Below, piece after piece: positions 3,568 to 19,466 of a stretch of 24,274 nucleotides of DNA (positions within the stretch are counted from its first letter, which is position 1; every line of letters begins with the position of its first letter). The notes under the pieces were generated by a model. The model saw only the letters and a program-made list of their open reading frames with translations, did not search any database and was not told the origin of the DNA. The position numbers were made by a program, and so were the translations under genes. Origin of the DNA: Pseudomonadota bacterium. Lineage in GTDB: Bacteria > Bdellovibrionota > FAC87 > UBA2466. Location of the stretch: assembly GCA_043767805.1 (NCBI GenBank), contig JAYUGC010000154.1, positions 1 to 24,274 on the forward strand. The letters are read 5' to 3'.

Positions 3568-4589
3568 GGGGCTCTGAGCTCACTATTCTGTCCGTCTCTT
3601 TCCGGTCGGAGTCGCTGCTGGAGAGAAACCTCCGGCTCACGGCGGAGCTGAACCCACGCACGCCCCACGACTGGATTATCGTGAACAACGAGGCCGCGCC
3701 TTTGCCGAAGCTGGAGGCCGCGGCTCGCGACACGGGCATTCCCCTTCGGCTTATCGACGGGCCTCCTCCCATTCGCACCCAACACGATGCGGGAAGCTAC
3801 CACCACGCGACCGCTCTGATGGCCGGGCTGAAAGAAGTGACCGGTCGTTTTCTGCTCATTCTCGATCCCGATTGCTTCGTCCTTAAAACTGACTGGATCC
3901 CCTGCGCCCTTCAGCGGATGAAACAGGAGTCTCTCAGCTTTCTCGGCTCGCCCTGGGATCCGGTGAATATTTCGAAGCATCAGGGTTTTCCGAGCGTTCA
4001 CTTTCTATTGATCGACCTGGAGAAAGTTCCCCGGGCGCTGCTCGACTTCACTCCGGATCTTCCCGAGACGGCCGACACGCGCAAACGCATCGACTGGCTG
4101 AAGGACAAGTTCCTGGGCACGTCCCTTTTCCCCTGGGCCGAGATCGTTCGTATCGGGCTCGGCTTTCGATCCAGTCGCGATACCGGCTTCCGGATGTTCG
4201 AGCGGTTCAAGGATTCGGAGGAGCATCGGATCGAGCTTTTGAAAATGGCTCTTCCCAAAGAGAAAATGCGGCGGCTGGAAGACATCGCTAACCGCGTGCC
4301 GAGGCCTTTGAAGCGCCCCGCTCATTATCTTTTGAAAAAAACGCTGAGCCACGGGAAGGCGACGCCCGAGTCGCAGCTCAAGCTGACCTTGAAGCTTTTG
4401 GGCTCTCGCGATCTTCGGTTCGAATGGGACGAGTTTCTGTGGGAAGGAAAGCCTTTCGCGGTCCATCTCAGACGTGTGCTGCTCTCCCATCGTTCCGCCG
4501 CCCACTTTCAGTACGATAACGAAGCCAAGGCGAGTCTTTTTCTGGACACTCTGATTCGGCATCGCCGCGCTCCGGAGGCATCCGCATGA
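3564..4589 (+). CDS. Putative GT-A (GT2-like) glycosyltransferase; paralog of 237..1112
   Basis: Start revised from 3510 to the ATG at 3564. It forms an ATGA overlap with the upstream stop, and MRGSELTILSV aligns with the paralog's MSARELTILTV. DxD-like motif in RFLLILDPD. Confidence 0.7.
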   Translation: MRGSELTILSVSFRSESLLERNLRLTAELNPRTPHDWIIVNNEAAPLPKLEAAARDTGIPLRLIDGPPPIRTQHDAGSYHHATALMAGLKEVTGRFLLILDPDCFVLKTDWIPCALQRMKQESLSFLGSPWDPVNISKHQGFPSVHFLLIDLEKVPRALLDFTPDLPETADTRKRIDWLKDKFLGTSLFPWAEIVRIGLGFRSSRDTGFRMFERFKDSEEHRIELLKMALPKEKMRRLEDIANRVPRPLKRPAHYLLKKTLSHGKATPESQLKLTLKLLGSRDLRFEWDEFLWEGKPFAVHLRRVLLSHRSAAHFQYDNEAKASLFLDTLIRHRRAPEASA

Positions 4590-5508: not shown

Positions 5509-6336
5509 ATGTTAACCGAGCTTCAGGGACTTCTTTCCAAGGCTAGATCGAGGCTTCCCTTTCCTCCGAAGAAACGGAAGCTGAAAATCGACAGACCTCC
5601 GCTCGACCTCGCAGCGATCAGGAGCTTCCTGGAAGTGGCCACCTCGCTACCCCAAGGGGGCGCGTTGCAGTCAAAGGCGCACATCGCCGGTGCTACGCGG
5701 CTCGTTCAGGCCTTGGGACTTCCTTCCCACCACGACTCACAGAAGAACTGGGACACGCTGAAGATCCTTAACTATCTGCTTTCTCACGTCGATATCAGCG
5801 CGCCCATTCTGGACGCTGGCTCGGGCTCGAGAAGCGCGATTTTGGGTTGGCTGTACGAAGTGGGGTACCGAAATCTGTTTGCTTGTGACAGAGCACCGGT
5901 AAAGAGAAAGTTTTACACGTGCCGGAACATTCCCTTCACCGAGCAGGATCTCACCTCGCTGTCCTATCCGGATGAGCAGTTCGCCGCGGTCACTTCCATT
6001 TCGGTAATCGAGCATGGGGTCGACCTGGGTAAGTTCTTCGCCGAAACGGCGCGGATACTCAAGCCCGGTGGCTGGCTTCTCGTCTCCACCGATTATTGGC
6101 CCGAGACCGTCAACTGCGCGGGAATCTTCCCCTACGGCGAAGGGAACGGCGAAATGAAGATATTCAATCGGCAGGAAATCGAGAAACTCCTTCGCCTGGC
6201 CAAGAAGCATGGCCTGGAACTCGCGGACACCGTCGACCTCGCGGCGACGGAAAAATCCGTCCGCTGGGAAAAAGTCGACAGAGATTACACGTTTCTCTTC
6301 TTGCCCTTCTGCAAGCGCGCCAGTCAGGAAGCCTAG
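5509..6336 (+). CDS. Class I SAM-dependent methyltransferase (Methyltransf_11-like)
   Basis: Motifs ILDAGSG, QDL..LSYPDEQF..V..ISVIEH, RILKPGG.L..STDY. Confidence 0.88.
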   Translation: MLTELQGLLSKARSRLPFPPKKRKLKIDRPPLDLAAIRSFLEVATSLPQGGALQSKAHIAGATRLVQALGLPSHHDSQKNWDTLKILNYLLSHVDISAPILDAGSGSRSAILGWLYEVGYRNLFACDRAPVKRKFYTCRNIPFTEQDLTSLSYPDEQFAAVTSISVIEHGVDLGKFFAETARILKPGGWLLVSTDYWPETVNCAGIFPYGEGNGEMKIFNRQEIEKLLRLAKKHGLELADTVDLAATEKSVRWEKVDRDYTFLFLPFCKRASQEA

Positions 6337-6350
6337 TTACGGTGCTCTTC

Positions 6351-6372
6351 CGAACCTTCCGGGAAGGTTTCG
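6351..6372 (+). terminator. Short hairpin after the + strand operon, a possible weak terminator
   Basis: AACCTTC-CGG-GAAGGTT (6353-6369), 16 nt after the stop at 6336. There is no real U-tract. Confidence 0.25.
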
Positions 6373-6578
6373 CGTGTCCCGCCAGCTCGAGAACCCGGGG
6401 TCTTTTCCCAGGTACTCGTTCGCCTATTTTGGCCGCCGACCCAGTCGTACTCTCCGTCTACGATCACGATTTTCCGATGGTTTCTGAAGTGGGAAGGGAG
6501 CGAATTTGGGGGCCGCTTGTAACGGAACTGCGTCGATATATCTCGCCGCAGGTGACGTAATTTCCGTGTATATTTATC
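6373..6578 (-). pseudogene. cls: Frameshifted remnant of a cardiolipin synthase (PLD superfamily, first HKD region)
   Basis: Minus strand 6488-6426 reads FRNHRKIVIVDGEYDWVGGQN. After 5 nt (AGGCG, 6425-6421), another frame reads NEYLGKDPGFSSWRDT (6420-6373). There is no ATG/GTG/TTG start upstream of the HKD motif, and an in-frame TAA lies at 6599-6597. The 5' boundary is approximate. Confidence 0.8.
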
Positions 6579-6679
6579 ACAACGCAGGCGTGAATATTAT
6601 TTTGAGCGGCTCAGATGTGCTCAATTGGATAGATATTAATAAAATCGCTGATTGAGCGAATTGGAGAGATAGCAGTTCG

Positions 6680-6707
6680 CGGCGGTGACCAAGTTGAGTC
6701 ACCGCCG
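6680..6707. terminator. Perfect 10-bp GC-rich hairpin downstream of the dioxygenase stop
   Basis: CGGCGGTGAC-CAAGTTGA-GTCACCGCCG, 28 nt past the minus-strand stop at 6736. No U-tract, so it may be an mRNA stability element or an atypical terminator. Confidence 0.45.
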
Positions 6708-6735
6708 GGACGCGCGCTGCGAGAAAATCCAACGG

Positions 6736-7803
6736 TCAACCAATATGAGCCGGCTGATAGAGACCGTTGAGAAGGTAATTTACGAAGAATTTGTTTTCAG
6801 AGGAAGAAAATCGGGAGAGCGCGGGGCGAGCTCTCTTTCCAAAAACAGGAAACGCGGTTGAAAATGGAGAGAGGTAATGTAGGAATAGAAGGTACCTAGA
6901 TTTTTCTCCTGGCCTACTTCCGAAGTGGTAGCAGTTACTCGTGTCAACGAAAGCCAAATCTCCTCTTTTTCCTGTGAATTCCACCCAATCTCTTCTTGGA
7001 ACAAATCTTAGGACCTCGGTATCATCAAGCCTTTTCTGATAACTAAGATGGCCACCGCGAGAACGAATTTCCTGCGTCTTATCAAGAGGCAGAAAAGTTA
7101 GTGGGGAGTTCAATTCAGTAACATCTCGAATTGGTATGAATATTTTTACTTGCTTAAACCCCTCTGGATCAACGTGGAACAATTGAGATTCGCCGATTTG
7201 TTTGTCATTGGGGGAAAAGAGAATTCTTAGCGACCCTAAAACAGGAAAAACGCCGAGATAGGCAGTAACTATTTCCAGTATAGATGGGTGGCTCGCCAAT
7301 TTGAAGATGGACGACTTATTACTAAGATAATGGGTGAAAGGGATGTGCTTTATTGGATTGTTAATTGTCTTGCCGACCTCTTTCAAGAACAAACCTCTTT
7401 CCTCTTTATTAAGACGTTCAAGCGAAGTAGGTTGGGCTAAGTACTGTTCATAGCCTTGAATTGCCTCATCACATTCCCTTAAAGCATTTTCGACCAGGTC
7501 GGGGACAGAAGACTTCGTAATGAGGTATCCGTTCGAGAGGCGTTTTCCGTGGATTTCCGTTCCTATTTCTGTGTCATGAAGCCTAAGGAATTTTCTCCTA
7601 ACGAGAAGGTTTTCCGCGAATTGCCGCGGCCGAGCAGCTCTAGACAAGCCTTCTAGAAATATTCGCAATTTTCTGGGTACGACTTTTCCTCTGGTGGCTC
7701 CGGAAAAATCTGGGATTTCTTTGACACTATTAAAGAGGAAAAACCGCATTTGTCGCCAAAATATTGCTCTTCGGCCTGAAACAGACAGCTCTTGCGAACT
7801 CAT
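6736..7803 (-). CDS. Fe(II)/2-oxoglutarate dioxygenase, PhyH-like
   Basis: HxD in SQLFHVD, then VKIFI..D...SPLTFLP, GKRGD..FVDT..CYH (distal His) and a downstream Arg. RBS GAAAGGAAG. Low GC. Confidence 0.8.
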   Translation of the reverse strand: MSSQELSVSGRRAIFWRQMRFFLFNSVKEIPDFSGATRGKVVPRKLRIFLEGLSRAARPRQFAENLLVRRKFLRLHDTEIGTEIHGKRLSNGYLITKSSVPDLVENALRECDEAIQGYEQYLAQPTSLERLNKEERGLFLKEVGKTINNPIKHIPFTHYLSNKSSIFKLASHPSILEIVTAYLGVFPVLGSLRILFSPNDKQIGESQLFHVDPEGFKQVKIFIPIRDVTELNSPLTFLPLDKTQEIRSRGGHLSYQKRLDDTEVLRFVPRRDWVEFTGKRGDLAFVDTSNCYHFGSRPGEKSRYLLFLHYLSPFSTAFPVFGKRARPALSRFSSSENKFFVNYLLNGLYQPAHIG

Positions 7804-8161
7804 TTCTTCCTTTCAAATATGCTGCGGAGTTTTGCCAGTATTCGCGGTGACGTCAACCTCGAGCTGGGTGAGCGCGCGCGACGCGTCCAGAAGGGCATGG
7901 CCCATACAAAATGCGACATGCTTACGACGACCGGCAATAGAGCCGGCGACGTAAGCTTCAAGGCTTTGCTCAACGATCCGACGAAATATCCTTGCCGCCG
8001 GTCTGACGTCATACATTACTGGAAAAAGGATTCGTTCACCCAGTTTCTCCGACTGAGTTCGGATACAAGAACAAACGTTATGGCGGACCTTTTGCTTTCA
8101 CCAGAATCTCTGAAATCAAAAAGAAACAATTGCTCATGCTGCAACTCTGACTGCCGTTCGT

Positions 8162-9658
8162 TTAGCTAGTTGACGCCAGCCGACTGGAGCCGGCGGTTAC
8201 CGCAACACCGCGGCTCAAGGCTTTGGGAACGGCGGCGGCAACCTCCTCGGCCGGCATTCCTTCCCCCAATAGACCGATGGCCAAACTCTGGACTTCGCCG
8301 GCGGAACGAGACAAGCCGTGAGGGCGCACGAAGCTCGTAACGAAGCGCTGGCGATTCGCCTGCTTCGGATCCTTGCCCGCGATGACCTGGCTGATTCTCG
8401 CAAGGCTATCGGGCACCCCTTTTTCGACGTACAGCACGTCGGCATTGAGCAGATGCTGAAAATGATTTGCCTTGTCCTGAGTCGCCTCGTATTGGCTCAC
8501 CGCCAGCGCAATGGACGGGCTATCGACGATAACAGCCTCTAGCATCGCTGAAGTATTGATACCTATCGTAAGCGCGGCCTGGCTCAAAGAGAGATAGAGG
8601 TCGCGCACGGATTCGACGCTCTCGGGCACTCCCAGCTGAAACTCGAAAGGCGGCTTCGGCCAAAGGAACACATTGGGCTCTTTTAGCCCGAGGTAAGCTT
8701 CGAAATTGGCCGGATGAGGACGAGCCAATATCTGCAGACGATTGAGCTTCGGATCGTCACTGGCCGCCAAAGCCCGAGCCAGATCCCGGATGAGCCAGGT
8801 TTCGTCGGGCGCGATATTCTTGGAAGAGCCCAAATACGTGAGGAAGGGACGCGTCTCGTCCATGCCGATGCGCTGGCAATAGGCGACCAACTCTTCTTTC
8901 GGGACACAAGCCTGCGAAAACCATTTGTCGAAAAAGGGAGAGCCCGAATTGAGGCAACGGCTAGGTGAAATCCCATGGATCCGGATCGCCTCGTCGGCAT
9001 GGGCCTGATTCCACGCAAGCACGAGGCTCGGTTTTACGTGCATCAAACCCTTCGTGGTCAGGTTGTCCCAGCTCAGCACCGGCACGGCGGTGGGAATTCC
9101 CATGGCCTTGGCGGCCTTCACGTACTCGACCTCTTCCGAGAAGCGCATGTCGACTGGGGAAGCAACGACGACGTCCGGCGAAAGCTTCTTGAGAAACTGA
9201 ACGATTTTGGGATCGGCCGGAACGAAGGACTCCACCGCGCGCACACCCAAGTCGAACAGCCGGCTCCCAATGATCTGCCGAAGCAATGCGCCGACCCGGC
9301 GGCGAGCAAGGCGCGTTTGCATGGGTTTCGAAAGGTAGCTGCGCCACCGATTCAAATAGAAAGCAGACTGCTCTTTCCGGCGCAGATAGCTGGAGTAAGA
9401 CCGGAGCTCTCTCAAAGGAAATAGGAACTTGCGGTAGCCGTCTTTTCTCAATACCGCCCACTGAAACGGGGCGACCCCGCGCTTTGCAATCCAGGCGTTC
9501 ACATGTTCGGTGGAGCGCTCGCGGCTCCAACGGGGATCGAAAACCAAAGTCAGCTCGCAGCCGCGGTCCACCAGACCGTCGAGAGTCGTCACGTGGTACG
9601 GGAAATGCGCCAAAGAGCGCATTACGTAAATCACTCGCACCTTTTTTTCCTGCGCCAT
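8162..9658 (-). CDS. GT-B-like 'SWDNLTTKG' protein, putative CMP-ulosonate transferase (paralog 1)
   Basis: Motifs SWDNLTTKG, GSPFFDKW, RPHP, GINTSAMLEA. The ATG at 9658 is preferred over the TTG at 9673 because GGGAG precedes it. Confidence 0.7.
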   Translation of the reverse strand: MAQEKKVRVIYVMRSLAHFPYHVTTLDGLVDRGCELTLVFDPRWSRERSTEHVNAWIAKRGVAPFQWAVLRKDGYRKFLFPLRELRSYSSYLRRKEQSAFYLNRWRSYLSKPMQTRLARRRVGALLRQIIGSRLFDLGVRAVESFVPADPKIVQFLKKLSPDVVVASPVDMRFSEEVEYVKAAKAMGIPTAVPVLSWDNLTTKGLMHVKPSLVLAWNQAHADEAIRIHGISPSRCLNSGSPFFDKWFSQACVPKEELVAYCQRIGMDETRPFLTYLGSSKNIAPDETWLIRDLARALAASDDPKLNRLQILARPHPANFEAYLGLKEPNVFLWPKPPFEFQLGVPESVESVRDLYLSLSQAALTIGINTSAMLEAVIVDSPSIALAVSQYEATQDKANHFQHLLNADVLYVEKGVPDSLARISQVIAGKDPKQANRQRFVTSFVRPHGLSRSAGEVQSLAIGLLGEGMPAEEVAAAVPKALSRGVAVTAGSSRLASTS

Positions 9659-9691
9659 ACTCAAATCTCCCAATCGCGAAACCGAAACAGC

Positions 9692-11131
9692 CTACACCGG
9701 GACCCGCTCAGGCTCCAAGCCTCGAAGCTTCGTCTGCGGGGCCTCACTCAAGCCAACCAAAAGCTCGGTCAGAGCCGATGCCGCGGTGGCTCCGGCGGAC
9801 ACTTTCAGGCCCTGAGGCCGGACCAGACGGAGGACCAGTTCCAGACGGGCGCCGGCCTTGGTATCGCCCGCTCCTTGAAAATGGCGCTCTAACCAGCAAA
9901 CGGCTGCTTTCGGCCCGTCCACGATTTCCAGAGCGTCCGACTTGAGCAACTCCTGAAAGTGCTGGGCGTCGGCTTGCGTGCCCCGGCGGCTTTCCTGAAG
10001 CCAGCATAAGCACGGGTGATCCAACGCCACCGCGTCCATCATTCCAGTCGTGTTGATCCCGAGCGTGGTTTCGCTGAAGATCACGCTCGCCACGAAATCC
10101 GCGCGGCTCGACGCCGAGTCGGGAAGCACGCCTTCCCGCGGCCATACGGCGACGCCCACGCGACTTAGCCCCTGAAAGGCAGCCCCGTTGGCGGGATGAG
10201 GACGAACTAAAATCTGCAGCTCCCTTACGCGCGCCTCGGCGCTGGTGGAAAAAGCGAGGGCGAGCGCTTCGACACTCGGTTTTCCCGAGGGCTCCACCGC
10301 GGGCGAGGAGCCGAGATAAAGGAGATAGGGCCGCGCGGGATCCAACCCCACGTGCGCGCAGAAGGCATTTCGGTCGAAAGCGGAGCGGTCGATCTCCCAC
10401 CACTTGTCGAAAAACGGAGAGCCCGTGACTCGAACGCGAGCTTCACTAATCCCGTGAAGCTCCACGGCCTGACGGCGGTGCTCCTCGTTCCAGACCAGCA
10501 CGCGGTCGGCGTACGGCGGAAGCAGACCCTTCGTCGATAGATTGTCCCAGCTATGCACGGCGACCGCGTTCGCAATCCCAAGCTTGCGGGCTCCCTTCAC
10601 GTACTCGAGCTCTTCCGACTGAGCGTGGTTCGTCGGCGAAGCGACGACGAGAGAAGGCTGAAGACGTTTCAGATGTTCCACGGCGCGGGAATCGGCCGGC
10701 AGAAGCTGCTCGAGCCACTGCAGAAACGCATCCACCCCGGGCACTCGTAGCGCAAAGTCCACGGGAAACCACCGTGCGAGACGGCGGGACCAGGGCATCA
10801 GGTTCCCCCGCCACCGCTCCCGGTAATAAGACGATTGGCCACGCCGGCGAAGGTAAGAGCCGTAACTTCGGAGCTCTCGCAGACCGACCGTAAAAGCGGC
10901 GAGCCTGTTCCAGAGCCTTCCCGCCACCCATTCGATCGTCACCCGTCCCCCTGTCGACAGGATCAGCTCGCGGCAGGCGAGGTCGTTCACGTCCTTGGGA
11001 TCGGTGGAAGGAATCAGCACCGTGACCTGATACCCCTCGTCGACGAGCGCGCGAATGGTGGAAGCCTGGTAGGAAACTACTTTGACCCCCTCCAGTGCGA
11101 ACAGAACGTGGCGGCCGGAAGTCGCTGTCAT
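9692..11131 (-). CDS. GT-B-like 'SWDNLSTKG' protein, putative CMP-ulosonate transferase (paralog 2)
   Basis: Motifs SWDNLSTKG, GSPFFDKW, RPHP, GINTTGMMDA. ATGA overlap with the neuA stop. Confidence 0.7.
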   Translation of the reverse strand: MTATSGRHVLFALEGVKVVSYQASTIRALVDEGYQVTVLIPSTDPKDVNDLACRELILSTGGRVTIEWVAGRLWNRLAAFTVGLRELRSYGSYLRRRGQSSYYRERWRGNLMPWSRRLARWFPVDFALRVPGVDAFLQWLEQLLPADSRAVEHLKRLQPSLVVASPTNHAQSEELEYVKGARKLGIANAVAVHSWDNLSTKGLLPPYADRVLVWNEEHRRQAVELHGISEARVRVTGSPFFDKWWEIDRSAFDRNAFCAHVGLDPARPYLLYLGSSPAVEPSGKPSVEALALAFSTSAEARVRELQILVRPHPANGAAFQGLSRVGVAVWPREGVLPDSASSRADFVASVIFSETTLGINTTGMMDAVALDHPCLCWLQESRRGTQADAQHFQELLKSDALEIVDGPKAAVCWLERHFQGAGDTKAGARLELVLRLVRPQGLKVSAGATAASALTELLVGLSEAPQTKLRGLEPERVPV

Positions 11132-11859
11132 CCGTTCCTGTCCCGGAGGAGAGTTTCGGCGAGGACGAAGTCGAGAGGCAGATTGATGTCTACCGACTCC
11201 TCTTCGCTCATCGGGAACGCGAGCACGTTTTTTCCGATGGTCGTCTTGGAACGATAGATGACGCTCGGCCGGGTGATGTAGATCGAGGCGTTCTGAATCC
11301 AGATCTCAGGCAGCTGCTGATACGCGAGCGTGTGCTTCTGCGAGCCGACGCCGCCGACGTAAGGATGGGCAAGCTTGCCCCTCACGGTCCACATTTTGTA
11401 CGGGTGCTCAGCGCACTTGCGAATGGATCGGAGCGACTCGGACTTCGGATTGGCGAGCATCTCGCGGATCGCGCGGTCGATGGACGCGCTCTTTCTGAAA
11501 GGCGTCGTCGGGTAGAGGTTCACGATGAGATCGGCCTCGTACCCTTCATTCTCTTTCAGCCAGTCGAGCGCGTGCCGGTGGAACTCGTACTCGGTGGAGC
11601 TGGAGCCGGCGAGATCCTTCGGACGCAGAAAAGGGACGTCCGCGCCGTATTTTCTCGCCGCTTCGGCAATGGCCGGAGCGTCGGTGGAGACCACCACACG
11701 GGTCACGAGCCTAGACTTAAGCGCGGCCTCAATCGTGTACGCGATGAGGGGCTTGCCGCCCAGATCCCGGATGTTTTTGTTCTTCACGCGCTTGGAGCCC
11801 GCACGCGCGGGAATGAGCGCGAGAACTTCGGGCCGCCGGGATGTGCGTGCGCGCGCCAT
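11128..11859 (-). CDS. neuA: Acylneuraminate/ulosonate cytidylyltransferase (CMP-NulO synthetase)
   Basis: Motifs ALIPARAGSKRVKNKN, GKPLIAYTI, VVSTD, PFLRP, PTTPFR, QNASIY, SVDIN...DF. Confidence 0.93.
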   Translation of the reverse strand: MARARTSRRPEVLALIPARAGSKRVKNKNIRDLGGKPLIAYTIEAALKSRLVTRVVVSTDAPAIAEAARKYGADVPFLRPKDLAGSSSTEYEFHRHALDWLKENEGYEADLIVNLYPTTPFRKSASIDRAIREMLANPKSESLRSIRKCAEHPYKMWTVRGKLAHPYVGGVGSQKHTLAYQQLPEIWIQNASIYITRPSVIYRSKTTIGKNVLAFPMSEEESVDINLPLDFVLAETLLRDRNG

Positions 11860-11862
11860 GGA

Positions 11863-13779
11863 TTATCTGGTCTCGGCGATACGGCCCGCGAGCGTGCGGC
11901 CGTCGAGCTTGTGGGCGCTAAGCGCTTCCCAAGGCGTACCGCAGGCCGGGAAGCCTTCGACGCCGAACTTTTGGAAGCGGATGTTTTTCAGCAGATCCTT
12001 CTCGTTCAGAAAAGCGAGGAGCAAATCGCCCAAGCCTCCCGTGGGAGAGTGATCGTCGACCACGTAAAGGTGCTTGCAGCCCGCGAGCTCGGATTTCAGC
12101 CAGTCGAGGTCGAAGCGGTTCAGCCAAGGCATGTTGACGACCTTCACGCTCAGCTTCTTCTGATCTTTCAGAATTTCCTGAGCGAGCAACGCTTCGTTCA
12201 GCATCACGGGCCCATAGGCAAAAAGTACGGTGTCTTCACCCGGGGTGAGCGCCACGCCCCGACCCGGGGATACGCGGTAGCCCGACGGGAGCGGGATGAG
12301 CCGCGGGGACGGACCAATGTTTACGCGCATCATCACGGAATGCTTGCTCTCCAAGACCGCCCAATGCGTCAGCTGACGAAGCTCTTCGCCGCTCGACCCT
12401 TGCACGATGGTCATGTCCGGAAACGCGGAGAAGAGAGAAATGTCGCGGATGGCCTGATGAGATTTTCCCGGACCGGCGGGAATAAGCCCGGCGTAGTGAC
12501 AGGAGAAAATCATCTTATTGCGCTCGGTGAGCGCGTTGTAGATCTGCTCATTAGCGCGTGCCGCGAGGAAGTTCGCAAACGAGTGCATGATGGGCACGAA
12601 ACCCTGGAGCGCGAGACCGCTTCCCATGGAAACCATGTCCTGCTCGGCAATTCCCATTTCGAAAAAACGCTTCGGGTACTTGTCCTCGAACTTGCGAAGG
12701 CGGCAATCAAGAGACAGATCGGCGTCGAGCACGACGAAATCCTTGTCCTTCTCCGCGAGCTCCATGAGCGCGTCGCCGTAAGCGTCGCACAGGAACTCTC
12801 CGCTCATCTTCGCCACTGGCCGCGCTTCGACCGCGGGCTCTTTGCGCGAAGGCGTGCCGAGGCCGAGACGTTTCCACTCGGACTGAACGCCTTCCCAAAG
12901 CTCGTCGTAAGCGCGGGTGTAGGACGCGTCATCGGGCGCGCCGGAGTGCCACTTGTAGAAACCATTGTTCGCCGGAAGCGCCGTCGGGTGTTCCATGAAG
13001 GAAATGCCCCGGCCTTTGATAGTGTCGGCGATGACGAACTTCGGCTTGTCGTCGAACTTGCGCAACGTCGTGAAGGCTTTTTCGAGCTGGTCGTAGTCAT
13101 GGCCGTCGATGCGAACCACTTCCCAGCCGAAGGACGCGATCTTCTTGTCCAGATCGCCTAAAGAATTGATGCGATCGATGTAGCGATCGCTCTGCAGCTT
13201 ATTGTGATCCATCACCACGGTGACGTTGTGCTGCTTTTGCGAAACAGTGCTCTGGAGCGCTTCGAAATTCTCGCCTTCCTGAAACTCGCCGTCGCCCGTC
13301 ATCACGAAGACGCGGCCTTCCCAGCCGCGCATCTGCTTGGCGGTCGCCATGCCGCGGGCTTTCGAGATACCCATGCCAAGCGATCCGGTATTGGCTTCGA
13401 TGCCAGGGATCTTGGTATCGGGATGGCCATCGAGACCGCCCAAACGGCGCAGCGCCAAAAACTTTTCCTCGGGGATGAGGCCGAGCGAATAAAGGACCGC
13501 GTACTGCCCGGGAGCGTCGTGCCCCTTCGACGAGAAGTAGATATCGCGATCGGGGTGCTTGGGACCCTTCTCCTTCACGTTCAAGTGCCGGTAGTACATG
13601 TAAATGACGATATCCATCGCGCTTAAGGAAGAACCGAGGTGACCGCTTCCGGCGCGCTTTACTTCGAAAAGCGTATTGAGGCGGGCCATTTTGGCGATGA
13701 GCTCCAGCTGCTCTTTCCAGTTGAGCTTAGCCGCCGCGACTTTTTCGAATTCCTCTTTCGGAATGAATTTCATTTCCAT
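11863..13779 (-). CDS. Single-chain transketolase-like ThDP-dependent enzyme with a non-canonical acceptor site
   Basis: Motifs SGHLGSSLS, SKGH, GHP, TGSLGMG, ThDP motif GDGEFQEG...N, TIKGRG, FEMGIAEQ. RBS GGGAG. Confidence 0.9.
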   Translation of the reverse strand: MEMKFIPKEEFEKVAAAKLNWKEQLELIAKMARLNTLFEVKRAGSGHLGSSLSAMDIVIYMYYRHLNVKEKGPKHPDRDIYFSSKGHDAPGQYAVLYSLGLIPEEKFLALRRLGGLDGHPDTKIPGIEANTGSLGMGISKARGMATAKQMRGWEGRVFVMTGDGEFQEGENFEALQSTVSQKQHNVTVVMDHNKLQSDRYIDRINSLGDLDKKIASFGWEVVRIDGHDYDQLEKAFTTLRKFDDKPKFVIADTIKGRGISFMEHPTALPANNGFYKWHSGAPDDASYTRAYDELWEGVQSEWKRLGLGTPSRKEPAVEARPVAKMSGEFLCDAYGDALMELAEKDKDFVVLDADLSLDCRLRKFEDKYPKRFFEMGIAEQDMVSMGSGLALQGFVPIMHSFANFLAARANEQIYNALTERNKMIFSCHYAGLIPAGPGKSHQAIRDISLFSAFPDMTIVQGSSGEELRQLTHWAVLESKHSVMMRVNIGPSPRLIPLPSGYRVSPGRGVALTPGEDTVLFAYGPVMLNEALLAQEILKDQKKLSVKVVNMPWLNRFDLDWLKSELAGCKHLYVVDDHSPTGGLGDLLLAFLNEKDLLKNIRFQKFGVEGFPACGTPWEALSAHKLDGRTLAGRIAETR

Positions 13780-13807
13780 AGCGTTCTCCCGTTCAAATCC
13801 GCCGCCC

Positions 13808-15277
13808 TCAAACTCCCGAGGGATCGACGACGTGGTAAATCACTTTTACGTTTGAATAGACGTCCAAAGCTTCCGGACCCGGCTCGCGGCCGCCGTTGCC
13901 GGACGCTTTGACTCCGCCAAAAGGCATGTGAGGCTCGCTGCCGTGCGTGCCGCCGTTGACGGTCGCCACACCAACCTGCACCCGCCGCGTGAACTCGAGC
14001 GCGCGGTTGTAATTGCGGGTGTGGATCGAGGCGGTGAGGCCGTAATCACAATCGTTCACCAAGGCGATGGCTTCCTCGAAGCCCTTTACCCGATAGAGAT
14101 TGGTGATAGGGCCGAACAATTCCTTGCGCGAGACTTCGTCGTCCGCCGAGAGGCCTTCGATCACGGTCGGTGCCAAGTAGTAACCGCCCTTGTGGCTCGA
14201 GTCTTCGAGACGCGCGCCACCCGAGGCGTACTTCGCGCCGCGTGATTTGGCGCCCGATAGCGCGGTCACCATATTGTCTAACTGGCGCTGATTGATCACT
14301 GGGCCGAGATCGTCCGCGTCAGTGCAACCAACTTTAAGCTGCGCGACTTTCTCTACCAGACGCTTACGGAACTCGTCGTAAACGGCATCGAAAACCACGA
14401 GACGGCTTGAGGCCGCGCACCGCTGGCCCGCATTGCTGAAAGAGGAAAGAAGCGCCCACTTCACGGCGTTATCGAGATCGGCGTCATCGCAAACGACGAG
14501 CGCGTTCTTGCCGCCCAGCTCGAGACAAACTTTCGCCAGACGCTCGCCGCCTACTTTCGCGATTTGGCGGCCGACATTCGTCGAGCCAGTGAAGCTAAGG
14601 AGAGAAATTGCGGGGTTCTCGACGAGCGCCGCGCCGACTTCGTGCCCATACCCGTGCAGCACGGTAAGCGCGCCGTCCGGCAAACCGACTTTGGTCAGAA
14701 TGCGGGACAAGATCCACGCGGTGAAAGGCGTGTCTTCCGAAGGCTTCAAGATGGCTGCGTTGCCGCAAACGAGAGCGGGAAAGACTTTCCAGGCGACGTT
14801 GGCAATCGGCGTATTGGCCGCCGTGATGAGCGCGCAAATGCCGACGGGCTCGCGAACGACACTCGGATACCGATTGGGCTGCGCGCTGACCGTCGTGCGG
14901 CCAAAGAAACGCTGACCTTCCCCGGCCATGAAAAGCGCGAGCTGAATGGCTGCTCCGGTTTCACCAAGCGCATCCTTCACGGACTTTCCGGTCTCCAAAG
15001 CGACGAGCTCCGCGATTTCCTGGCGGCGGGCTTTCATCTCGTAAGCGGCATCGAAAAGAATTTCCGCGCGGCGCACGGGCGTAAAGGCCGACCAGGTTTT
15101 GAATCCAGCTTTCGCGACCTGAATGGCCCGCTCGACGTCCGAGCGATCGGAGCGCGTCACTTCCGCAATGGCCTCGCCCGAGTGCGGGCTATATTTCGTG
15201 AGAAAACGCCCGGAAGCGGAAGGCGCTTCCTCGGAACCGAATTGATTCAAAAGCCGGCTGGGCCGATTTTCCTGCAT
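13808..15277 (-). CDS. NAD(P)+-dependent aldehyde dehydrogenase
   Basis: Motifs KPSE, FTGS, LELGGKN (catalytic Glu), NAGQRC (catalytic Cys), ELFGP, PFGGVKASG. RBS GAGGAG. Confidence 0.93.
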   Translation of the reverse strand: MQENRPSRLLNQFGSEEAPSASGRFLTKYSPHSGEAIAEVTRSDRSDVERAIQVAKAGFKTWSAFTPVRRAEILFDAAYEMKARRQEIAELVALETGKSVKDALGETGAAIQLALFMAGEGQRFFGRTTVSAQPNRYPSVVREPVGICALITAANTPIANVAWKVFPALVCGNAAILKPSEDTPFTAWILSRILTKVGLPDGALTVLHGYGHEVGAALVENPAISLLSFTGSTNVGRQIAKVGGERLAKVCLELGGKNALVVCDDADLDNAVKWALLSSFSNAGQRCAASSRLVVFDAVYDEFRKRLVEKVAQLKVGCTDADDLGPVINQRQLDNMVTALSGAKSRGAKYASGGARLEDSSHKGGYYLAPTVIEGLSADDEVSRKELFGPITNLYRVKGFEEAIALVNDCDYGLTASIHTRNYNRALEFTRRVQVGVATVNGGTHGSEPHMPFGGVKASGNGGREPGPEALDVYSNVKVIYHVVDPSGV

Positions 15278-17915: not shown

Positions 17916-17957
17916 CGGGCAATATGAAACTAAGTGCGGAGCGGCCACGGGCCTTGG

Positions 17958-19466
17958 ATGTTTGACGTTTCGATTCTTTCGCCGAAAACCGCCGCGCCGC
18001 GAATCGTAGTTTTTCTCCGATCGATCAGTCACTTTTCGTACATTCAGTCGACTTTGGAAGCGTTACTCCACCATGGCGTATCTCTTCAGCTCGTTTTCGA
18101 CGCCGAAGCTAGCGCGGGCCACTCGACGGAATTCGTAAAGACTTGGGAAAGGCAGCACGGGCTTTCCCATTTCATTTACGCTAAGCGTCATAAAATGGGT
18201 TGGCGTAGGTACTTGCACGTCATCCGAGAGCTCGCTAGTTACGGAAGCTTTTTACGGCGGCGGGAACAGTCCGAGTTCTTTCTCCGGAGATGGCGAGGCT
18301 ACTTACCCAACCGGGTTCGCTTCTACCTTCAGCGCCGCACCGTAGGAAAAATTTTAAACGTTCTCATCGGGTCCCTTCCCTTTACTTGGATGGCACGGGC
18401 AATCGAACTCTTGGCTCCCGCGGATCCTGACGCCATGCTCCTACTCCGGCAATTACAGCCCGATGCTATTGTCGCGACTCCGGCCAACACCCGATTCTCG
18501 GCGGAAGTGGAATTTCTCAAAGCCGCTAAACGGCTGCACATTCCCTCGGCGGTCCCCGTTTACAGCTGGGATAATTTGACGACCAAAGGCCTCTTTCACT
18601 GCCGGCCGGATCTTTTGCTCGCGTGGAATGAAACGCACGCCGAGGAAGCCGTGCGGATTCACGGCATACCCCGGCATCGAGTCGCCATCACGGGAGCGCC
18701 TTTTTTCGATAAGTGGTTCACCGAGCCCGAACAAGGCCCCGAAAGCCGGCAACACTACTGCCGAAAAGTGGGCTTGGATCCCGCGCGTCCGTTTCTCACT
18801 TATCTCGGCTCCTCCTCCAACGTCGCGTCCGATGAGAGCTGGCTCGTAAAAGAGCTTGCGGAGACGCTGCTCAATCATGAGGATCCGGCTATCCGCCAAT
18901 ATCAAGTCTTGGTAAGACCGCACCCGGCCAATTTCAAAGGGCATTTGACTCCCCTTCCGCCAAATGCGGCGGTTTGGCCTCGCCCGCCTTTCGATTTCGA
19001 GCATGGCGTACCGGAAACCTCCGGGGCCCTTCGAGATCAAAGCCTCGCTCTGCAACTATCCGTCGCCACTATCGGCATCAATACCTCGGCAATGCTCGAA
19101 TCCATCATCGAGGACAAGCCTTCCTTTGCTTTTCTGTCGGATCTCTACCGTCCCACCCAGCAGGATACGACTCATTTTCAGACCCTGTCACGAACCGGAA
19201 CCCTTTATCCGATTCACACCCGCGACGAACTTGTGCGCGGTTTGCAACGGCTGGCACACGGTGAAGATCCCGCGCGAGGCGCAAGACGAGCCTTCGTCTT
19301 GAACTTCATGCGACCGCACGGACTTGCTGCTCCCGCAGCCACCCTGCAAGCTAGCGCCATCTTAGCGCTGAGCCGGGGCGTACCGGCACACATCATCAGC
19401 TCTCAGTTTTCCCCAAAGCGGTATGAAAGCTGGAAAAGGCCTCAGCCGATTTTTTCGGGAATGTAG
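17958..19466 (+). CDS. GT-B-like 'SWDNLTTKG' protein, putative CMP-ulosonate transferase (paralog 3)
   Basis: Motifs SWDNLTTKG, GAPFFDKW, RPHP, GINTSAMLES. Start uncertain (GTG 17934 or ATG 17958). Confidence 0.7.
   Translation: MFDVSILSPKTAAPRIVVFLRSISHFSYIQSTLEALLHHGVSLQLVFDAEASAGHSTEFVKTWERQHGLSHFIYAKRHKMGWRRYLHVIRELASYGSFLRRREQSEFFLRRWRGYLPNRVRFYLQRRTVGKILNVLIGSLPFTWMARAIELLAPADPDAMLLLRQLQPDAIVATPANTRFSAEVEFLKAAKRLHIPSAVPVYSWDNLTTKGLFHCRPDLLLAWNETHAEEAVRIHGIPRHRVAITGAPFFDKWFTEPEQGPESRQHYCRKVGLDPARPFLTYLGSSSNVASDESWLVKELAETLLNHEDPAIRQYQVLVRPHPANFKGHLTPLPPNAAVWPRPPFDFEHGVPETSGALRDQSLALQLSVATIGINTSAMLESIIEDKPSFAFLSDLYRPTQQDTTHFQTLSRTGTLYPIHTRDELVRGLQRLAHGEDPARGARRAFVLNFMRPHGLAAPAATLQASAILALSRGVPAHIISSQFSPKRYESWKRPQPIFSGM

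Follow-up and report, generated by a model that had tools for sequence, protein, structure and literature searches.

The 24,274-nucleotide window analysed here (contig JAYUGC010000154.1 of assembly GCA_043767805.1, a Pseudomonadota bacterium placed by GTDB in Bdellovibrionota; FAC87; UBA2466) carries, within an operon headed by a NeuB-family gene, a transketolase-like enzyme dependent on thiamine diphosphate (ThDP), hereafter TKL (Table 1). We found that the residues with which transketolase (TK) carries out ketol transfer are kept in TKL, and that those with which it holds the phosphate and the acceptor C2 hydroxyl of its substrates are replaced, in the same way across a whole clade of cassette-linked proteins. 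From these sequence features, TKL is probably a specialised and active enzyme of a ulosonate pathway, and we hold with good confidence that it acts on an intermediate of this pathway that is not a sugar phosphate. It probably trims a sialic-acid-like sugar to an as yet undescribed acidic surface sugar.

TKL matches the three Pfam families of TK (PF00456, PF02779 and PF02780), and its best NCBIfam model is NF004559 (short-form transketolase; 387.6 bits against a cut-off of 488). It also stays below the cut-offs of the other TK models (NF004556, 273 vs 575; TIGR00232, 146 vs 682) and of the models for DXS, the synthase of 1-deoxy-D-xylulose 5-phosphate (TIGR00204, 179.3 vs 465.95; NF003933, 149.5 vs 395). 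When all PDB chains were searched with phmmer, the top match was human TK (3ooy/4kxu/3mos), aligned end-to-end at E ~6e-62, and both chains of the split TK of Carboxydothermus hydrogenoformans were matched as well, while the DXS match was weaker (E 3e-31). At least 119 more clusters (90% identity) of similar length, 55-70% identical to TKL, came up in a protein search; relatives are labelled either 'transketolase' or 'DXS' by their source databases.

An initial annotation of this DNA, made by eye, had claimed that motifs between 12310 and 12800 lack the equivalents of E. coli TktA R358, S385, D469 and R520. The segment, on the minus strand, does encode TKL residues 327-490, and alignments with human TK and TktA confirm the four losses, with Cys, Asp, Pro and Ile at the respective positions. 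Against human TK (phmmer), Arg318 falls on Cys331 or a gap, Ser345 on Asp358, Asp424 on Pro437, Gln428 on His441, and Arg474 on Ile488. Against TktA (MAFFT), H26, H66, H100 and H261 correspond to H47, H87, H119 and H278, E411 to E379, D469 to P437, H473 to H441, and R520 to I488. R358 and S385 were misplaced by both MAFFT and hhalign and were assigned from the human TK alignment together with the motif register, on the assumption that the E. coli and human residues are equivalent at these two positions. According to passages of PMC11387542, R358, S385, H461 and R520 of E. coli TK hold the phosphate, whereas H26, H100, H261, D469 and H473 hold hydroxyls, in agreement with the roles given in the initial annotation; the same passages equate R520 with DXS R478, the Arg that binds the phosphate of glyceraldehyde 3-phosphate (GAP). 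In human TK, Arg318, Ser345, Asp424, Gln428 and Arg474 are listed, together with His37, His110, His258, Glu366 and His416, as the active site in a study by combined quantum and molecular mechanics (PMC8016368).

Conservation was counted in a single alignment of 126 clade TKLs and 69 split-gene TKs; in this comparison group, 69 of the 73 compared loci consist of two adjacent split TK genes joined by tblastn read-through. Indeed, most of the ~33%-identity 'fused TK' matches of tblastn (L007-L080 and L100-L170) are adjacent split genes, and few are true single chains. Arg is absent from all 126 clade members both at position 331 (R358; A75 V27 S14 C7 N1 K1 T1, against R in 69/69 split TKs) and at position 488 (R520; I121 A2 V2 M1, against R67, K1 and one gap). 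Position 358 (S385) is invariably Asp (126/126; A39 S30 in split TKs) and is followed by an equally invariant Cys359, where all 69 split TKs have Thr. At position 437 (D469) the clade has P125 A1 and the split TKs D68 N1, and the preceding residue is G124 A2 in the clade and Glu in 59 of 69 split TKs. Read in ungapped register, position 429 (H461) is Y113 F11 L2, against H66 S3. A His does occur in 123 of the 126 at position 428, one residue before the H461/H416 position, and HMMER and hhalign pair it with the H461-equivalent His only by way of an inserted gap.

Concerning the catalytic set, E379, H47, H87, H119, H278 and H441 are each present in 126/126 clade sequences, the GDG...N motif is invariant, and the equivalents of human R100 and K244 read as conserved. 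The initial annotation had held that the ThDP motif, the catalytic Glu and the histidines are retained, which is correct for D163, N193, E379 and five of the six histidines (126/126 each); H461 is the exception, with Tyr429 in register. A 'new Lys' noted in the same motif, at position 439, proved variable (K53 Q46 S17, thus Lys in 53/126). The four residues are replaced throughout the monophyletic group of 126. Judged from sequence, this pattern is not chance, the substitutions being fixed across the clade: the ketol-transfer machinery (ThDP site, catalytic Glu and the histidines that in TK hold the donor C1/C3 hydroxyls) is intact, and the distal phosphate site and the acceptor C2 hydroxyl site are gone, with a rebuilt distal channel.

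The clade has also gained basic residues, in the same channel-lining segments as the losses. Arg445 is present in 126/126 TKLs, where 65 of 69 split TKs have Glu; position 362 is Arg or Lys in 119/126, and Arg493, which sits within a clade-specific insertion, occurs in 110/126. TKL may therefore still bind an anionic group (a carboxylate, the phosphate of cytidine monophosphate (CMP) or even another phosphate), in a different position.

An ordinary split TK is encoded as well, on another contig of the assembly (4.5 Mb and, by marker count, 100% complete). The halves of this enzyme score 335 and 317 bits on NF004559, and the positions discussed here are unchanged in its C subunit (Arg, Ser, Thr, His, Asp, Arg); TKL is therefore an extra, specialised paralogue. 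A frame of ~655 amino acids on contig C100, not scanned on its own, gives a weak match to DXS-related models. In a quick-search maximum-likelihood tree of 55 rows, all cassette-linked TKLs fall into a single clade (SH-aLRT 99), with a second fused family as its sister (SH-aLRT 100 for the two together); both sit inside the split-type TKs. TKL is best explained as a specialised paralogue of split-type transketolases, fused into a single chain.

The second single-chain family (L046, L057, L075, L080, L136, L139, L143 and L148) lies outside the cassette, and no informative context was found among its neighbour genes. It has Trp for H26 and Gly for R358 (Arg in L139), and shares Cys359 (Met in L139) and the pair His428-Tyr429 with the cassette clade; Asp469 is kept, and Arg520 mostly so.

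Scans of genome and metagenome contigs with patterns drawn from TKL itself gave 15 loci at 40-69% identity, a number that undercounts the family. Those named belong to Bdellovibrionota, Ignavibacteriota, Chloroflexota and Acidobacteriota, which makes at least four phyla. At E <=1e-100, TKL was found in 1 of 200 other sampled genomes of its own phylum and in none of 32 genomes of the same family. The cassette is rare locally and, as genes for surface glycans usually are, spread over several phyla. A distant version in an actinomycetotal metagenome-assembled genome (L070, 33% identity) shares both the neighbours and the losses (Val, Asp, Leu, Ala, Ser); it forms a long branch, and its placement in the tree is unsure. 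A group at 40-43% identity (L096, L097 and L099) lacks Arg331, His429, Asp437 and Arg488 and keeps Cys359, His428 and Arg445. In the near-identical metagenome loci L097 and L099, NeuB lies on the opposite strand, TKL has Pro358, Leu429, Thr436 and Gly493 in place of Asp, Tyr, Gly and Arg, and L099 carries upstream a fused cytidylyltransferase / UDP-GlcNAc 2-epimerase gene. These changes, effectively from one lineage, may represent tuning to an N-acetylated substrate of the N-acetylneuraminic acid (Neu5Ac) type.

TKL is the fifth gene of a six-gene minus-strand operon with gaps or overlaps of <=45 nt, and the cytidylyltransferase gene starts 3 nt after its stop codon (Table 1). In every related locus with sufficient flank (13/13), the genes for the short-chain dehydrogenase (SDR), the aldehyde dehydrogenase (ALDH) and TKL are adjacent, and NeuB and the cytidylyltransferase lie next to them; the remaining two of the 15 loci (L005 and L098) are cut short. 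The phosphatase is present in L003, L004, L006, L091, L095 and L096, and among the related loci the cassette has no conserved epimerase or kinase that would make a standard precursor. The named relatives of SDR, all below cut-off, are gluconate 5-dehydrogenase, GolD/DthD, D-mannonate oxidoreductase and KduD; its PDB matches are 1vl8, 4npc and 2wdz, with galactitol and sorbitol dehydrogenases among the relatives, and all the closest named ones act as oxidases of an omega-1 hydroxyl, on a polyol or a sugar acid, in the dehydrogenase manner. The best NCBIfam models for ALDH (alpha-ketoglutaric semialdehyde dehydrogenase and 2,5-dioxovalerate dehydrogenase, both below cut-off) act on 2-keto-3-deoxy omega-aldehydo acids. 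Taken from sequence similarity, these are weak hints for an omega-1 oxidation followed by an aldehyde oxidation.

Table 1. Features of the window that bear on TKL and its operon, with positions in the window (aa, amino acids).
Feature	Position	Strand	Basis or remarks
TKL, TK-like ThDP enzyme, 638 aa, single chain, PP + Pyr + TKC domains	11863..13779	-	Pfam Transketolase_N, Transket_pyr, Transketolase_C
ThDP/metal motif G-D163-G ... N193	13201..13293	-	D163 and N193 invariant in clade alignment
Stretch under study, residues 327-490; Pyr-domain segments lining the distal substrate channel in TKs	12310..12800	-	codon mapping
Codons, first part	C331 12787-12789; D358 12706-12708; C359 12703-12705; R362 12694-12696; E379 12643-12645	-	
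Codons, second part	H428 12496-12498; Y429 12493-12495; G436 12472-12474; P437 12469-12471; K439 12463-12465	-	
Codons, third part	H441 12457-12459; R445 12445-12447; I488 12316-12318	-	
NeuB-family ulosonate synthase, 355 aa	16701..17768	-	Pfam NeuB + SAF; TIGR03569 300.9 bits vs cut-off 399.65; PDB matches SpsE, NeuB, PseI
HAD phosphatase, KdsC / Kdn-9-P phosphatase type, 182 aa	16156..16704	-	NCBIfam KdsC 101 bits, KDN-9-P phosphatase 87.6 bits, both below cut-off
SDR, 272 aa	15292..16110	-	Pfam adh_short_C2
ALDH, 489 aa	13808..15277	-	Pfam Aldedh, E 1.5e-149
CMP-ulosonate synthetase (cytidylyltransferase), 243 aa	11128..11859	-	Pfam CTP_transf_3; PseF 143.6 bits; KdsB models <=63 bits
Glycosyltransferase-like protein, no Pfam family	9692..11131	-	paralogues 8162-9673 (-), 17934-19466 (+)

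These genes can be arranged into a pathway whose specific route, trimming and oxidation through SDR, TKL and ALDH, we rate at about even odds. NeuB and the phosphatase would first yield a free nonulosonate resembling Kdn (2-keto-3-deoxynonulosonic acid), with a terminal CHOH-CHOH-CH2OH tail; in this scheme the phosphatase would free the terminal CH2OH that a TK donor needs. SDR would then oxidise the omega-1 hydroxyl, at C8, and so create the donor motif of TK, a HOCH2-CO-CHOH ketol. TKL would cut the C7-C8 bond, leaving a C7 aldehyde and ThDP-bound glycolaldehyde, and ALDH would turn the aldehyde into a second carboxylate, the product being a 3-deoxy-hept-2-ulosaric acid. The cytidylyltransferase would activate this product for the neighbouring glycosyltransferase-like proteins, although the CMP step could equally precede the tailoring. 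TK donors require the D-threo (3S,4R) configuration, and by our own derivation from textbook stereochemistry 8-keto-Kdn, read from C9, would present it. By the same derivation, its 'C4' oxygen would be that of the pyranose ring, which would leave a hydrogen-bond acceptor like Asp469 without a hydroxyl partner.

We therefore put forward, as a tentative proposal, that the cassette is an enzymatic counterpart of the periodate trimming of sialic acids, in which a TK-derived ThDP enzyme removes the two terminal carbons of an oxidised nonulosonate and ALDH makes the stump a second carboxylate. This would provide many uncultured lineages with a new route to CMP-activated 3-deoxy-heptulosaric acids, the class of Dha (the D-lyxo isomer of 3-deoxy-hept-2-ulosaric acid), for their surface glycans.

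Several points weigh against this scheme. Every step of the pathway is read from gene context; the scheme offers neither an acceptor nor a release route for the C2 fragment; the similarities of SDR and ALDH are generic and below every curated cut-off; and no phosphatase lies beside the cassette in three close loci (L001, L002 and L093). The conserved Arg362, Arg445 and Arg493 might rebuild a phosphate site. In an AlphaFold2 (AF2) monomer model of TKL, built on 37 sequences and with a mean predicted local distance difference test score (pLDDT) of 87.6, the active-site loop 434-440 has pLDDT <50. Foldseek placed human TK first by E-value, at a template-modelling (TM) score of 0.45, whereas DXS structures reached TM 0.72-0.77; this DXS-like domain arrangement of the model, if real, would weaken arguments from TK geometry, and it may be an artefact that arises when an obligate dimer is folded as a single chain.

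These points also bear on what the initial annotation had concluded, which the analysis supports in part. Its view of TKL as an active enzyme is consistent with the sequence, the GDG...N motif, Glu379 and five histidines being invariant in the 126. A non-phosphorylated substrate agrees with the clade-wide replacement of the phosphate set and is likely only, given the gained Arg residues. The multiple alignment, named there as a possible refutation, showed that the residues are not conserved, and compensation by Arg362, Arg445 and Arg493 may exist. As for free or CMP-linked ulosonate as the substrate, the gene is always found in the NeuB/SDR/ALDH/CMP-transferase cassette, and it is from this context that the identity of the substrate is drawn.

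Among other readings of the cassette, one is that TKL works in the building direction, adding a C2 ketol to an aldehyde derived from the ulosonate tail or a precursor, with SDR reducing the resulting ketone to give a longer or epimerised sugar acid. TK reactions are reversible, the catalytic set of TKL is intact and SDR could work as a reductase, but ALDH, adjacent in 13/13 loci, would be left without a substrate, the ketol donor would have to fit a channel lacking the phosphate site, and the needed aldehyde is not made by any enzyme of the cassette; we consider this unlikely.

Alternatively, SDR, ALDH and TKL could act before NeuB, building from non-phosphorylated metabolites an unusual, possibly acidic aldose that NeuB would then condense with phosphoenolpyruvate. 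Tailoring usually precedes the NeuB-type step in known nonulosonate pathways, and the lack of a conserved epimerase or kinase for a standard precursor would fit such a supply route. It is nonetheless improbable, as the KdsC-type phosphatase implies a phosphorylated NeuB substrate, yet TKL lacks the phosphate site, and ALDH yields a carboxylate, whereas NeuB needs an aldehyde.

A further possibility is a carboligase of the DXS or AniP type, or an alpha-keto-acid decarboxylase, in which ThDP would attack C2 of the ulosonate or pyruvate with loss of CO2, and ALDH would oxidise the resulting aldehyde. AniP, of anisomycin biosynthesis, is described in passages of PMC11387542 as a TK-like enzyme with an aryl-pyruvate (alpha-keto-acid) donor and non-phosphorylated substrates, which lacks the R358/S385/H461/R520 set, D469 and the His-rich motif; as a TK-like enzyme in which the phosphate residues are missing it offers a precedent, and the AF2 monomer superposes better on DXS than on human TK. 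However, that arrangement may be an artefact of single-chain folding, and in sequence TKL is nearer to TK (phmmer E 6e-62 vs 3e-31; NCBIfam 388 vs 179 bits). Moreover, the His set that binds the ketol hydroxyls is invariant in TKL and, going by the same excerpts (PMC11387542), absent in AniP, and a decarboxylated product would be without the anomeric C2 needed by the CMP-transferase, all of which makes this option quite improbable. Finally, an ordinary or redundant pentose-phosphate TK whose residues have merely drifted, as the database labels of the relatives would have it, is hardly credible given substitutions fixed across 126 sequences, a housekeeping split TK in the same genome, scores below all curated TK cut-offs, and a gene found in 1/200 other genomes sampled from the phylum and never outside the cassette.

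As for the surroundings, the three glycosyltransferase-like paralogues (~480-510 amino acids) fall into no Pfam family and match no PDB sequence. The matches that they do have are weak (Glyco_transf_4, 22 bits; BFO_1060 family, 29 bits vs a cut-off of 200). Homologues at 30-40% identity follow the cassette in L001, L002, L005 and L093, with weaker ones in L096 and L099, and the three proteins are candidates for transferring or polymerising the CMP-sugar. Elsewhere the window encodes GT2 glycosyltransferases and methyltransferases, and the whole looks like a surface-glycan island. The region 6001-8000 has a G+C content of 0.46-0.52 against ~0.59 elsewhere and includes a 355-aa open reading frame, outside all Pfam families, at 6736-7803 (-); the region may represent a junction or recent insertion within the island. 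A 688-aa Arg/Gly/Ala-rich open frame antisense to the TKL and cytidylyltransferase genes, at 11095-13161 (+), is without support and is taken as an artefact of the high G+C content (59%). The closest related locus, L001 (from a Bdellovibrionaceae metagenome-assembled genome), carries near the cassette a gene resembling that of Kdo-8-P synthase (DAHP_synth_1) and another CTP_transf_3 gene, at 13027-13908 (-) and 3579-4502 (+), and has no HAD phosphatase between NeuB and SDR.

If trimming of a nonulosonate by TKL is correct, TKL would become the first member of the transketolase family with an assigned role in ulosonic-acid tailoring, and the cassette would represent a new way to seven-carbon keto-diacid sugars and a concrete candidate chemistry for the heptulosaric-acid class. 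The four changed positions are, according to parts of PMC7661550, those that engineers mutate to widen TK specificity, and the clade, with its natural replacements at R358, S385, D469 and R520, would therefore be a natural template for TKs taking non-phosphorylated acidic substrates. Many 'transketolase' and 'DXS' database entries are probably mis-annotations. In the literature we found no paper on a TK-like enzyme in a NeuB cassette, and among publications on ulosaric and heptulosaric acids (Dha in rhamnogalacturonan II (RG-II), prasinophytes and lipopolysaccharide (LPS)) none that describes the cassette.

Compared with TK (EC 2.2.1.1; human TKT 3MOS/4KXU, C. hydrogenoformans 6YAK/6YAJ and E. 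coli TktA), TKL has the same three-domain fold, ThDP/metal motif and catalytic Glu, and keeps the His equivalents of E. coli H26, H66, H100, H261 and H473. It differs in the replacement of R358, S385, H461 and R520, which hold the phosphate, and of D469, the residue that contacts the C2 hydroxyl of the acceptor and determines stereoselectivity, and in the new and invariant Asp358, Cys359 and Arg445. Whereas its nearest TK relatives are encoded by two genes, TKL is a single chain, and it belongs to a sugar-acid operon and not to the pentose-phosphate pathway. With DXS (EC 2.2.1.7), whose active site is built within one chain by domain I on domain II of the same monomer, it shares the superfamily and a similar length, and its AF2 monomer has a DXS-like domain arrangement, either truly intra-chain or a product of single-chain folding; it differs in scoring below the DXS cut-offs and in having Ile488 at the place of the GAP-phosphate Arg (DXS R478).

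The Kdn pathway of Bacteroides thetaiotaomicron consists of Kdn-9-P synthase, Kdn-9-P phosphatase and CMP-Kdn synthetase, with no SDR, ALDH or ThDP enzyme. The present cassette resembles it in having a NeuB-family synthase, a KdsC-type HAD phosphatase and a CMP-transferase, and differs by the insertion of SDR, ALDH and a ThDP enzyme as a fixed block.

AniP, as portrayed in excerpts of its published description and not compared by sequence, is alike in being a TK-family enzyme of a specialised pathway that has lost the phosphate set and D469. Unlike AniP, TKL keeps the His motif, and this suggests a sugar ketol as its donor.

The predicted product, a 3-deoxy-hept-2-ulosaric acid, belongs to the class of Dha, which according to parts of PMC4019464 is found in the LPS of Acinetobacter haemolyticus (strain NCTC 10305), and of which the enzymes and activated form are listed as still to be identified in sections of a 2025 review of RG-II (PMC12168206; see also PMC3355719 and PMC4019464). 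By our own derivation, trimming of Kdn itself would lead to the L-arabino isomer and not to the D-lyxo configuration of Dha, so that making Dha by this route would require a precursor with the D-manno configuration at C4-C7.

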